Origin: Eledone cirrhosa
Taxonomy: Eukaryota
Direction of reading: 5' to 3'
NCBI GenBank assembly: GCA_964016885.1
Contig: OZ024761.1
Location: 27,280,001-27,344,000 of the forward strand
Length of the DNA stretch: 64,000 nucleotides
A program made the translations under genes and the position numbers. Positions 38,148 through 60,095 of this stretch are shown piece by piece (the stretch's first letter is position 1; each line of letters begins with the position of its first letter). Below the pieces are notes generated by a model. The model saw nothing but the letters and a program-made list of their open reading frames with translations. It did no database searches and had not been told where the DNA came from.

Positions 38148-38350
38148 GACGTATTATTCGTTTTTTCCCGTTCTTTGCCAGGGAACGTTTCCACAAACCA
38201 AAGTATCGTCTTCCTGTCTTCCTCCGGTTGCAACGTTTTTTGAAATATCCACTTCTGCGTTTACAGATTGACTTTGTTAGTTTCAGAAGATCCCGTTAAG
38301 GGTGAAAGCAGCGATTCTTTGCTTAAACTTTAATCTGTTATTTTAATAAA
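38145..38350 (+). mobile_element. Family B insert with U4A hammerhead-like motif at 38263-38338
   Basis: ACAGATTGA..AGTTT-CAGAAGA-TCCCGTTAAGGGT-GAAAGCA..TGCTT-AAACT-TTAATCTGT. Confidence 0.75.
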
Positions 38351-38743
38351 TATATATATATATATATATATGAAATATATATATATATATATATATATAT
38401 ATATATATATATATATATATATATATATATATATATATATATATATATATATATATCATATGAAATATATATATATATATATCATATGAAATATATATAT
38501 ATATATATATATATATATATATATATATATATATATATATATATATATTTATATATAAAGAGGATAACAAGATATCGTTATAGGTAATCCAAATAGAGGT
38601 TGTGAATACTTCTTAGCATGGATAGTTATAGCGTACGGCGTTGTTGACTCAACAAGAGGTTTACGTAGATGACGAGTTTATGATTTCATAAATATGAAAT
38701 ATTTTAAATATATATATATATATATATATATATATATATATAT

Positions 38744-39019
38744 TTTATAGAAGGAGCTTCTACAGGACTAGTACTGTTTCATTCAGATGAAATCTTCAGG
38801 AAGCTGGGTGTCATATTAAGTTCTGGTATTTATACATTTTATACCTAAATGTATAAATACCAGAACTTAATATGACACCCAGCTTCCTGAAGATTTCATC
38901 TGAATGAAACAGTACTACTCCTGTAGAAGCTCATTCTATAAAATAAAAAAAATTTACTCTGCCATGAATTGAGTACCTTACTTACTGTGGTTATCCCCGA
39001 CTCAACCCGGGACCTACGT
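38744..39019. mobile_element. Family A' fold-back insert, hammerheads at 38755-38805 (-) and 38881-38931 (+)
   Basis: Near-identical to 25986-26305, in opposite orientation. Confidence 0.87.
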
Positions 39020-39051
39020 ATATATATATATATATATATATATATAATTAT

Positions 39052-54715: not shown

Positions 54716-55281
54716 CTAGCTAAACTACCCGTCCTTTGGACGGTTCAAGTAGCTTTCGATGTAGCTCATTAAACTAAACAAAGTAAATTTGAATACATAG
54801 AAGAAAAACGTACTTTATGTAAACATGAAAACCTTAGGCACTATTCCAGCGAAATAATTAATATGTGAGCTCGGTGCCATCCGTTATCCCATGTAACAAC
54901 CGAAATCCAGTCTAGGTATACATTTTTTTGACAACAGTTAAAACCTTTTGTTTCAAGTACAAAGAGTAAAGTAAAATCCAAATGAGCCGAATTGTAATAA
55001 TCAAAATCCCAAAACAAAATTTTTGACAACATCAAAAATGAGTTCCTATTGTCTTATTTAATCACGAAAATTGACACAAATAACCGAAACTTTTTTAATG
55101 TCTCTAAAGGCTCCAATATCGATTTTTGAAAGCCTTTGTATATCATGTACAGGTTTTGTGCAAGGAGCAGCTCTGTAAAAAATTTCAAAGAAATCGCAAT
55201 AAATGGTTTAGAATATATGAGCCCTCATTAAAAATTGTCCACACACACACACAGAAAACTTCAGCTTTATATATATACAGA
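54716..55281 (-). mobile_element. Non-autonomous Helitron-like element (566 bp)
   Basis: Minus strand begins A|TC and ends CTAG|T, with hairpin CCGTCC-AAA-GGACGG (54729-54743) 9 nt before CTAG; no TSD. Confidence 0.8.
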
Positions 55282-57969
55282 TATATATATACATACATAC
55301 ATAAATAAATACATACACATATATATACACACACATACATACACATACATACACACATACATACATACATACATCAGACGCACAAAAAAAGGGACATACA
55401 CACACACGTAAACAGTCCCCCCCCCCACACACAGAGGATGAGGTGAATGAGGTCGAATATAGGGTGTATCGATTAAGTTTGCATGAGGTCGCGGTTGGCT
55501 CTGGTTCCATCTTACTCTTGTTTATCTTTCCATAATCTCTCTCTCCTATTCTATCACCCGTTGAAGGAGTAACTTCCGAAACGTTAAGACCCATTTCCTA
55601 CTATAACAAGTGTTAATTTAATATATACCATCATTGTCTTGTTCTCGGGTTGTTCTTCCTTGATTCTCTGTACACACACACACACACACACACACACACA
55701 CACACACACACACACACACACACACACACATATATATATATACTTACGTGTGTGTGTATATGTTCTTGTTTTGTTTCCTTTTTCCATTGTGTGAAGAAGT
55801 TTTATCTTCAATTTTAACCTTGCGGAAAAATGATATTTAATATATATATATATATATATATATATATATATATATATATATATATATATATACACACACG
55901 TATATATATATATATATATATATATATATATAATATATATATATATATATATGTGTGTGTGTGTCTGTATGTGAGTGTGTGCACGCGTGTGTATGTGTGT
56001 GTTTGTATACTTATATATTATACGTATATTCATCTATATATTGTCATCATTATCGTTGTCAACGTTCTTCTTCTTCTTCTTCTTCTTCTTCTTCTTCTTC
56101 TTCTTCTTCTTCTTCTTCTTCTGCTTCTCCTTTTCCTCCTTCCCCCCCATCCCCCACCTCCCCTCCCTTCTCCTCCCCCTCCTCCTCCTCATGATGATGA
56201 TGATGATCATCATCATCATCGTTATCGCCATCTTCATCATCATCATCACCACCACCACCACCACCACCACCACCACCACCACCATCATCATCATCATCAT
56301 CATCATCATCATCATCATCATCATCATCATCATCATCTTTATCATCGTCGACGTTGCTGCAGTTGTTTTGCCGTTTTTGCAACGTCTTCACAGCTCCCGG
56401 TCAGTGTTTTTCACATTACTTGACGAAATGGAGGGAGGAAAAAAAATGTTATTTTTATTTTTATTTCGTTGTCTTTCTTGGCTAATGATATTTGTCACGC
56501 GCCTGCGCACAGCTCTACTCTCATATCACACACACACACACACACACATATGCACATACACACCACACACACACACACATATATATATATATATGTATAC
56601 ATTTTATATCTATCTATTTATCTATCTCTGTCTAATATATATATATATATATATATATATATATATATATATATATATATATATATATATATATATACAT
56701 AAATATATACATATATATATATATATATAAATATATACATACACACACACACACACACACACACACACACATATATATATATATAAATAATATACATATA
56801 TACACATATATATATATAATATATACATATATACAGATATATATATATATACATATATATATATATATATATATATATATATATATATATATATATATAT
56901 ATATATATATACGTATATAAAGATATATATATATATATACATATATAAAGATATATATATGTATATATATACATATATATATATATATATATATATATAT
57001 ATATATATATATATATATATATATATATATATATATATATACATATATAAAGATATATATATAATATATATACATATATATATATATATACATATATATA
57101 TATATACATATATAAAGATATATATATATATATATATATACATATATATATATATACATATATATATACATATATATATATAAATATATATATATATATA
57201 TATATATATATACATACGCGTCCATAAACGCCGTGTCTGTTACAGCCGTAGGGCTGAGACCTGTGCAAGAATACAAGAATTCTGTGATTATGTTGTTACG
57301 CTGATGACATAAATATGTATAGGCCTTAGTTGATAGAATGATTAGAACGAAGCCTACAGCTATTATAAACTTACAATCTAATTTCTTCACGTAAAATATA
57401 CACTTCATTCCACCAGTGACTGCTGTAACACTTGAAAGATGTGCCTTGTATTTCAAAACCACATTTATTTCATTGCTGCTTTCTCGTTTTCGGTTTTCTT
57501 TCGGTTTTTCCTTTTGATTTTGACTTTTAGTGATAAGATTCGTCGTTGTCGTTGTCGTTGTCGTCGTTGTTGTTGTACACCTACTACTACTACTACTACT
57601 ACTACTACTACTACTACTACTACTACTACTACTACTACTACTACTACTACTACTACTACTACTACCACCATCACCGCACCCTTATATATATATATATGTT
57701 GCTTGTTTATTTTCCTATCTTCGGTTTGCTTTTATCCTTCTATGCTGTTTACTTGTCCCCCTCGCCTTACGCGAATTCTGGTCCCAATAACTTTTTTTAG
57801 TTATTGCTCGCACCAACCTGAGGTATCTGATTTTTAATGCGATGAAATACCAATGATGGTTGGAAATCACTGACGAAGGACTATTTTTATCATATGTAAC
57901 CCATGTGCAAACCACGCAGTATTCTTCTTTCTTCTCATGTTTTTTATATATATATAATATATATATATA

Positions 57970-60095
57970 TATTTATTAAAATAACAGATTAAAGTTTAAG
58001 CAAAGAATGGCTGCTTTCACCCTTAACGGGATCTTCTCGTTTTATATGCTCTATGGTTCTATATATATTTTTATATATATATTATCCTTATCGAGCCCTC
58101 TTCAGATTTTAGTCTTCACATTTATTTTTATTACTATATATATATATATAAGTCTAAAGTCTGTCTTAAGCCAGAAGGGTCATTTGGCCGGTGTTTATCC
58201 CGGTTTCATGGCGTGAAGCGACTGAGAGTACAAGACTCCCCCCTGGACAGGACGCCAGTCCATCGCAGGGTTAAACCCCCAGCTATTGCTGGTACTCGTT
58301 TTCAGCTGAGTATACTGGAGCAACGTGAAATGAAGTGTTTTGCTCAAGAACACAACACGCAGCCCAGGAATCGAACCCACGACATTATGATCGTAAGTCC
58401 AGCACCCCTACCACTAGATAACAGATTAAAGTTTAAGCAAAGAATCGCTGCTTTCACCCTTAACGGGATCTTCTGAAACTAACAAAGTCAATCTGTAAAC
58501 GCAGAACTGGTTAATTCAAAAAACGTTGCAACCGGAGGAAATCAGGAAGTCGATACTTTGGTTCGTGGAAACATTCAATGGCAAAGAACGGGAAAAAACG
58601 AATATAATACGTCATTAATAGGAGCGGTGAAAAACAATTACGCGCAAAGACAGAACCACGTTTATGGTATAAAAGAGGTCGTAGACTAATGTTCACTGAG
58701 GTGGTGCATAGAGACGTTCTCTGGCAATGAACGAGAAAAACGAAGATATATATATATATATATATATATATATATATATATATATATATATATATATATA
58801 TATATATAATAATAAATTTGAAGACTAAAATCCAAAGAGGGTTCGATAAGGATAAATATATATCAAATATATAAGAACCGTAGAGCAAATATTTATTAAA
58901 ATAACAGATTAAAGTTTAAGCAAAGAATCGCTGCTTTCACCCTTAACGGGATCTTCTGAAACTAACAAAGTCAATCTGTGATACGCCACTGACCACATCT
59001 TAAACAAAAATTCTGAGGCAATTTCGGCTTTAAACATAAATTGCACAAAACTTTCCTGTATTACAGCACCACATTATACCCTAACGGATAGTACGATCTA
59101 TACGCGGATATTTTATGTCTTGATGTGGTAGCTAAGTATATGTTATGTTTATACCATTACTTATTTGCATAGGTAAGTATATATTACCTGTACGTTTTGT
59201 GGAGGTACGTATACTTTCTCGTACGTATATTTGATTGTATATGTTATGGCGTATATTTTATATATTCTGGTACATATGGTTTGGTTATGTGTATACGTGA
59301 GTTTTGCGTCTGTGTGAGTATGCGGTTTCGTACGTATGTATGGTGTGTGTATATGTGTACTTCGTGTTTTGGTTGACGTACGTCTCCGAACATATGTGTA
59401 TTTACATGTAGGTATGTATGTGCGCTTGTTATATACGTATTTATTTATTTATATACGTTTATTTAATTATTTGTATACACGTACACACACACACACATAT
59501 TTATATGTGTGTGTATTTGTATACCTATGGCGAGTGTTTTCGCGTATGCTTGTGTATGTACGTATATGGATGCGTGTATGTATTTATTTAATTTCAATTA
59601 CCTCTGTATTTTATTTACTTTACTCTTAACTCTGAAGCCGAGAATCATTCGGTTTCCTAGTTAGAATTTTAGTCTACGACTTCAGTTATACCATTTACGT
59701 GGTTTTGTCTTTGCTTGCAATTGTTCTCGCCGCCCCACATATGACGTATTTTCTTCGTTTTTTCCGTTCAATGCCAGAGAACGTCTCGATGAACCACCTC
59801 ATAGAATATTAGTCTACGACTTCATTTATACCATAAACGTGGTTTTATCTTTGCGTGTAATTGTTTTTCACCGCTCCAAATAATGACGTATTATATTCGT
59901 TTTTTCCCGTTCTTTGCCAGGGAACGTTTCCACGAACCAAAGTATCGTCCTGTCTTCCTCCGGTTGCAACGTTTTTTGAAATATTCACTTCTGCGTTCAC
60001 AGATTGACTTTGTTAGTTTCAGAAGATCTCGTTAAGGGTGAAAGCAGCGATTCTCTGCTTAAACTTTAATCTGTTATTTTGTAACTTTAATCTGT
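57970..60095. mobile_element. Nest of family B Penelope-like copies (U4A hammerheads at 58421-58497 -, 58903-58979 -, 59999-60073 +; partial 57983-58036)
   Basis: Repeated AATAACAGATTAAAGTTTAAGCAAAGAATCGCTGCTTTCACCCTTAACGGGATCTTCTGAAAC. 58420-58745 is inverted at ~59750-60080; internal 140-bp duplication at 59669/59809. Confidence 0.8.
58150..58418 (-). mobile_element. Near full-length tRNA-derived SINE
   Basis: Minus: CTAGTGGTAGGGGTGCTGG A-box, GGTTCGATTCC B-box, GTTCTTGAGCAAAACACTTC core, GACTGGCGTCCTGTCCAGGGGGG. Confidence 0.85.

Follow-up and report, generated by a model that had tools for sequence, protein, structure and literature searches.

A hammerhead-shaped motif with A at core position 4 in a likely Penelope-like repeat family of Eledone cirrhosa

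Does a repeat family whose hammerhead-shaped motif has lost U at core position 4 in every copy still use that motif to cut its RNA, or does it keep the fold for another task? The question is raised by a 64,000-nt stretch of the Eledone cirrhosa genome (assembly GCA_964016885.1, contig OZ024761.1, positions 27,280,001 to 27,344,000 of the forward strand; here named the window), in which a 76-nt motif with the core CAGAAGA recurs. We report that A at position 4 (A4) is the norm of this family. We propose, with a probability of about one half, that the motif has a type I layout at the 3' end of the pseudo-long terminal repeat (pseudo-LTR) of a likely Penelope-like element (PLE), that U4 was replaced by A and fixed in the source copy, that self-cleavage is likely slow or negligible on its own, and that the fold is probably maintained for binding by reverse transcriptase (RT).

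A4 is the norm of the family

Alignment within the window placed full copies of the motif at 38263..38338 (+, copy 1), 58421..58496 (-, copy 2), 58904..58979 (-, copy 3) and 59999..60074 (+, copy 4). Copies 1, 2 and 3 are identical at 76 of 76 positions and copy 4 matches at 74 of 76; homology of copy 3 to the others ends a few bases 5' of the motif. A previous sequence-only reading of this DNA had claimed four full copies, all with the CAGAAGA core, and these are present at the sites it named, with three of its coordinate pairs wrong by one. CAGAAGA and a CUU triplet were read in the four full copies and in four fragments of the motif found by scanning the window, at 58037-57984 (-), 16637-16592 (-), 16637-16680 (+) and 45289-45265 (-).

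Three helices surround the core in the order of a type I hammerhead. In copy 1, a distal stem of 9 bp (38263-71/38330-38) is followed by a 7-nt 5' bulge and a stem I of 5 bp; stem II has 3 bp and the loop GUUAA, and stem III has 4 bp, or 5 if a G·U pair is counted. Every helix named in the sequence-only reading does pair, and what it took for a mismatch in stem II of copy 4 is a U·G wobble, derived from C-G by one of the two substitutions of this copy; the other changes the outer G·U of stem III to G-C. By standard numbering, the core of copy 1 (38284-38290) starts with C3 at 38284 and A4 at 38285, and G5 to A9 extend up to 38290. Positions 10.1 and 11.1 are a U·U (38291/38303), G12 A13 A14 A15.1 is the GAAA at 38304-38307, and U16.1 and U17, the latter a permitted H17, lie at 38323 and 38324, so that the predicted cut is 3' of U17, 38324.

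Compared with the core C3 U4 G5 A6 N7 G8 A9, the motif fails at position 4 only, where all copies have A, and the other six positions fit; the closing pair 10.1-11.1, usually G-C, fails as well. The departures from the usual consensus are therefore three (A4, U10.1·U11.1 and U17). A4 and CUU had been recognized before, and the U·U mismatch had been overlooked. U10.1·U11.1 is a published and tolerated variant of natural hammerheads (PMC3088659; this and the other papers are cited for the portions of their text that were accessible). At the motif copies, scans of alternative registers with a CUGA core and of the opposite strand gave no hammerhead. These features support the view that the motif is hammerhead-derived, as judged from its sequence.

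Four of 20 public sequencing runs (X1, X5, X7 and X18) were compared with positions 38020-38349. X1, X5 and X7 are contig runs with the organism labels A, B and D, and X18 consists of raw reads, 12,135 of them aligned, with a depth of about 6,000 at the core. X1 may be the source of the window itself and so is not independent, and X7, at a depth of about 5-10, perhaps reflects a minor component of its sample; in 14 of the 17 runs containing family sequence, shares were below one half. In X1, X5 and X7, A>T changes stayed below 2% throughout the 330-nt stretch. X18 has six A>T places at 2% or more, one of them located, at 38122, among the 40 of 133 variant rows listed; position 38285 has no variant row among these 40. 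Because the weakest listed X18 rows lie mostly near 9-10%, under a ranking rule that is not stated, we infer that U4 has a share below about a tenth in this run. Contigs under two further organism labels carry the same A4 core: contig 15 of X5 (label B) has 0 differences over 38263-38325, and contig 19 of X7 (label D), which covers 38212-38316, has 2 differences, both placed upstream of the motif. A CTGAAGA consensus, the outcome that would have spoken against a shared origin of the change, did not appear in the runs compared, and reads and contigs support the earlier claim that the source element already carried A4 and that the change is not due to decay after insertion. The presence of A4 in all copies implies only that the master copy had A4, not that the motif is an active ribozyme.

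Repeat anatomy and canonical sister families

Copies of the motif-bearing element stop at a common 3' end, 25 nt past the predicted cut and next to (TA)n, or run on through an optional tail of about 85 nt. On the 5' side they begin at various points, often within the motif, and an inverted piece of tail or motif frequently stands in front. Element copy 1 (38143..38349, +) is 5'-truncated and ends TTTTAATAAA before (TA)n. Element copy 2 (58418..58745, -) is adjoined at its 3' end by a different repeat. The tail after motif copy 3 (58808..58892, -) is followed by (TA)n and is found also at 16496-16580 and, inverted, at 58043-58134. The longest copy (59662..60095, +), in opposite orientation to copy 3, has upstream of the motif two tandem units of about 135 nt (59662-59796 and 59802-59939) that are 84% alike. 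The remaining pieces are an inverted tail fragment fused to a copy truncated at A4 (57973..58134, -), a 3'-terminal fragment between (TA)n runs (45254..45289, -) and a palindromic insertion (16496..16691), in which the tail and the 3' half of the motif (-) stand back to back with the 3' half of the motif (+), the inversion point being in stem II. In the public reads, depth more than doubles, stepwise, across 38273-38300, opposite-strand joints cluster within 38266-38325, and loose ends consist of (TA)n or of the tail in inverted form.

The combination of 5' truncation with a common 3' end, an adjacent inverted copy and an optional tail is that of a Penelope pseudo-LTR, and a preference for (TA)n targets is seen both in the window copies and in the loose ends of reads behind 38348. 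Consistent with this, PLEs have been described with 5' truncation, adjacent inverted copies, a tail of 30-40 nt and microsatellite targets (PMC8557442), the same anatomy as here. The motifs of the family were absent from the searchable supplement text of that paper, in which long sequence runs are incomplete. From its anatomy, this highly abundant repeat is likely the pseudo-LTR of a PLE.

Other assignments were considered and rejected. The GIY-YIG-like frame at 46409-46864 (-) is a poor candidate for the protein of the family: it is unlinked to it and has only a weak NCBIfam match (E 0.13), and longer proteins yielded no homologue. Nor does the element include the canonical hammerhead that lies 200 nt upstream of copy 1, at 38046-38083; its own family ends at about 38145-38150 and other copies lack it. 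A retrozyme of the non-LTR type (lacking long terminal repeats) is also rejected. The metazoan retrozymes of Cervera and de la Pena 2020 (PMC7229834) share a full-helix type I hammerhead in a non-coding animal repeat, whereas the window copies are truncated and inverted, no head-to-tail hammerhead monomers of 170-400 nt were found, the 135-nt units contain no hammerhead, and the motif copies are not tandem.

At least three other families of the window have a canonical CUGA core, a short stem II closed by U·U and a stem III in hairpin form, and they end at the same two points, with (TA)n located 26-43 or 109-126 nt past GAAA; one of these canonical sister families also has U17. Two related type I families with a CUGA core have U10.1·U11.1, a 3-bp stem II and a hairpin stem III, with C3 at 38887(+), 38799(-), 26118(-), 26247(+), 20512(-), 9516(-) and 9522(+). 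At 60876(-) and 60942(+) lies an inverted pair whose CUGA-core motifs have GUU (U17) as their triplet and a stem III of 3 bp. As sisters with a CUGA core share U·U, and one of them U17, these two are local family traits and A4 alone stands out. The CUU triplet, which the sequence-only reading had presented as special, is present and is less special than implied, given the U17 of the canonical-core sister family. The two related CUGA families occur mostly as inverted pairs with an optional tail, one copy (26247) has G8 changed to A, and they provide natural controls for the A4 family.

The sister families bear also on whether the resemblance to a hammerhead is due to chance, the motif being the 3' stem-loop of a repeat of the long or short interspersed nuclear element (LINE or SINE) type. 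Such a reading would fit the absence of a hammerhead match in Rfam, either in 38000-38350 at E<=10 or among the best 150 of 337 matches over the window, and the folding results: the hammerhead fold has -12.3 kcal/mol (-13.0 with a fifth stem III pair) compared with -15.1 for the minimum-energy fold, pair probabilities in stem I of copy 1 are 0.05-0.08, and the z-score is -0.63. These negatives do not discriminate, because the canonical hammerhead at 38046 is likewise overlooked by Rfam in 38000-38350 and neither of two canonical sister motifs gives the full hammerhead as its minimum-energy fold. A relaxed descriptor, allowing one mismatch in CUGANGA with stems I>=5, II>=3 and III>=4, matched once in 60 simulated windows, and not at all in 60 when a distal stem of at least 8 bp was added. 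Position and layout are the same as in the canonical hammerheads of the sister families, and the inverted and tailed insertions are PLE-like. We therefore regard chance resemblance as very improbable. The claim that strict searches overlook the motif is borne out.

Many distinct hammerhead families undetected by Rfam are present in the window. Minimal PLE-type hammerheads with a long stem II and a palindromic stem III are found at 38046-38083(+), 37670-37633(-), 40303(+), 61482(-), 40926(+), 39154(-), 44637(-) and 45126(-), and U3-A8 covariant cores (TTGATAA) at 45998(-), 16926(-) and 17169(+). The motif at 45998(-), whose positions 10.1/11.1 are U·U and whose stem III is palindromic, lies about 400 nt 3' of the GIY-YIG-like frame 46409-46864 (-). 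The different repeat that abuts the 3' end of element copy 2 (58160-58416, -) has matches at 11.4-11.5 and 20.9-21.0 kb and is presumably SINE-like. Two broken LINE-type coding regions, 5323-8527(-) and 33809-36425(+), are unrelated to the motif; the frame 34544-35560 matches Pfam RVT_1 (E 7e-19).

Position 4 in other natural hammerheads

Early mutagenesis of minimal hammerheads found changes at position 4 to be damaging, not always null. U4 contacts the A6-N7 phosphate (PMC3088659), and in mutational scanning single mutations of CUGA gave low activity, with no second-site rescue except by a C3-G8 swap (PMC9901934). The natural distribution of bases at this position was surveyed in viral contigs with the sequences of stem II and C15.2 fixed, so that the surveys cover part of hammerhead diversity, and the counts are of contigs, not of independent events. 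For canonical U4 the estimates were about 770 and about 1300 matches, with complete stems in 126/136 and 117/131 of those examined, compared with 1-2% after shuffling; U17 was found in 3/126 and 1/117 of these canonical hammerheads. C4 formed complete hammerheads, of types I and III, in 21 of 28 pattern matches (L013-L040); U4C thus turns up repeatedly in phages, at a few percent of the number of canonical cases. A4 gave 1, 44 and 36 pattern matches, with 0, 0 and 1 borderline case of complete stems, and the single viral scan allowing G4 found none. Among GTDB genomes, surveyed without a canonical control, 75 purine-4 matches included A4 that was clear in 1 of 23 and G4 that was marginal in 2 of 52. 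Matches from a metagenome scan were rejected as members of the family and are taken as chance, since 11 of 11 had no flanking similarity and one had a 28-nt BLAST match.

In these phage and prokaryote surveys, position 4 of natural hammerheads tolerates C and almost never A, with about 2,000 canonical cases and one clear A4. A4 is selected against in ordinary hammerheads, and its rarity agrees with the contact of U4 to the A6-N7 phosphate and with the mutational scan of CUGA. No description of a U4A family was found in literature searches, which did not extend to Lunse et al. 2017 and Nelson and Uhlenbeck 2008, either of which may describe position-4 variants, or to figure-only supplements. 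The strings CAGAAGA, CAGAUGA and CAGATGA are absent from 11 supplement text files of PMC3088659, where gapped alignments or figures could hide one, and the accessible text of PMC1636495 contains no CUU or GUU passage.

Cutting, binding and ancestry

How could a variant so rarely tolerated become the norm of a large family? Its helices are intact, and its copies have two 3' end points and are 5'-truncated, inverted and (TA)n-flanked. Such copies could arise if a Penelope-type RT/GIY-YIG protein nicked AT-rich DNA and began reverse transcription on uncleaved RNA at an internal point downstream of the motif; this would leave sequence on both sides of the predicted cut. Catalysis would be weakened because A4 would be unable to make the U-turn contact of U4 with the A6-N7 phosphate, and the variant would have been free to amplify since insertion would not need cleavage. 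The fold would probably be retained as part of the RNA end bound by the RT of the element. With the purified Poseidon element, reverse transcription starts at two internal sites, giving the optional tail, and uncleaved RNA is used; hammerhead mutants do not reduce PLE insertion in vitro, and the Poseidon hammerhead cleaves only with protein present (Frangieh et al. 2024, PMC11167929). The element of that study, PAc of Anolis, shares with our family the two 3' end points, the AT-rich targets and copies spanning the cut site, whereas it has a canonical core and a known open reading frame (ORF); our family has a variant core and a longer tail, and no ORF is attached to it in the window.

Public reads contain a second subfamily with about 10% divergence upstream, including 10 linked high-share differences in 102 upstream nt. 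Inside the motif it differs only at 38272 and 38276, both in the unpaired 7-nt bulge, where its U insertions are also located. High-share differences thus number 10/102 upstream and 0/69 at non-bulge motif sites (Fisher p=0.006), and the location of both in-motif changes in the bulge has p=0.007. Two C>T changes with a share of 10%, at 38294 and 38312, fall on CpG sites and lead to a wobble and a loop change, respectively. Stem changes are one-sided and compatible (C-G to U·G, G·U to G-C), with no two-sided change in copies or reads. This pattern suggests that the structure was kept after A4 was fixed, and it does not separate catalysis from binding.

The same data can be read as those of a dead passenger, in which A4 came from one recently amplified master copy and the conservation of the 3' end reflects recent ancestry or 3'-end exchange rather than structural selection. 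The 97-100% identity of the window copies in the motif, the lack of any two-sided compensatory change in the stems, the conservation of free loop positions as much as of paired ones and the dispensability of cleavage for PLE insertion in vitro (PMC11167929) are all in line with this. It accounts poorly for subfamily differences that reach the motif only at the bulge (38272, 38276 and the U insertions) and spare the distal-stem strand 5' of them (p=0.006, 0.007), and we consider it unlikely.

Several observations count against a fold kept for binding in a PLE. The contrast between subfamilies could be produced by template switching that makes 3' ends uniform, and loop III, expected to be free, is equally unchanged. 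The tail is about 85 nt, longer than the 30-40 nt described in the accessible text of PMC8557442. No ORF is attached to the A4 family within the window, which is why membership among PLEs is argued from anatomy, and Pfam gave no match for the 49-aa frame at 58982-59131. Five of the A>T places in X18 and five differences in X7 are unlocated, outside the 40 of 133 rows listed. The core is unaltered at ten other nucleotides, the catalytic G8 and G12 among them, as would be expected of an active ribozyme, and the same is true of loop II, as GUUAA fits the RNnA tertiary motif found in 22/27 natural hammerheads (PMC2632901). Finally, there is one clear natural A4 hammerhead, in a Saccharibacteria metagenome-assembled genome (L218, CAZZHV010000038.1, 81-104 (-)): a complete type III motif with stems of 7 and 6 bp, a GUC triplet and a CAGAAGA core. 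The surveys of prokaryotes and phages gave no second clear A4 case.

The last three of these points speak for a working ribozyme, in which the long stem I, a contact between the U-rich bulge and loop II (GUUAA), and/or the protein of the element would offset A4, giving slow but used cleavage after CUU. The core bases other than A4 and all helices are intact in both subfamilies, a PLE hammerhead cleaves only in the presence of its protein (PMC11167929), and a viroid carrying U4C, although weakly active in vitro, is still infectious (PMC3088659). Against it stand the near absence of A4 among about 2,000 phage hammerheads that do tolerate C4, the combination of three sub-optimal features (A4, U·U and U17), the low predicted pairing probability of stem I and the lack of rescue of CUGA changes in mutational scanning (PMC9901934). 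We consider such a ribozyme possible, on balance doubtful. Its most specific form, a working purine-4 hammerhead fixed in a very large Penelope-like family of several related species, with a bulge-loop contact or the element protein replacing the U-turn contact and cleavage occurring only inside the retrotransposition complex, is to be taken as a tentative suggestion that is rather improbable. As two consensus features fail and cleavage is known only as a prediction, the motif is not classed here as an active hammerhead.

The motif works like, and descends from, the hammerheads of PLEs (Cervera and de la Pena 2014, PMC4209133), with which it shares type I layout near the element 3' end and abundant single truncated motifs. 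Those hammerheads include core variants (U3-A8) and have low intrinsic activity; A4 is not mentioned among their core variants in the accessible text. Unlike the metazoan minimal dimer type, the motif has a stable helix III of 4-5 bp, as do fungal and protist PLE motifs, and it differs further in its long bulged stem I and in U·U instead of G10.1-C11.1. Perreault et al. 2011 (PMC3088659) list natural variants of the core that likewise have U10.1·U11.1 or a change at position 4 (U4C in a viroid); what sets the motif apart is the fixation of its variant across a large repeat family in a eukaryote.

Core variation in PLE hammerheads is thus a known theme (PMC4209133), and the U4A family is undescribed in the literature searched. 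Why PLEs keep hammerheads is a puzzle, as cleavage is dispensable for insertion in vitro (PMC11167929). A successful family with a rarely tolerated change and a kept fold lets cutting and binding be told apart by a natural experiment, for which canonical sisters in the same genome serve as controls. If the motif cleaves, the core of natural hammerheads would be wider than thought and descriptor searches would miss whole families; if it does not, the hammerhead scaffold would be able to persist without catalysis.

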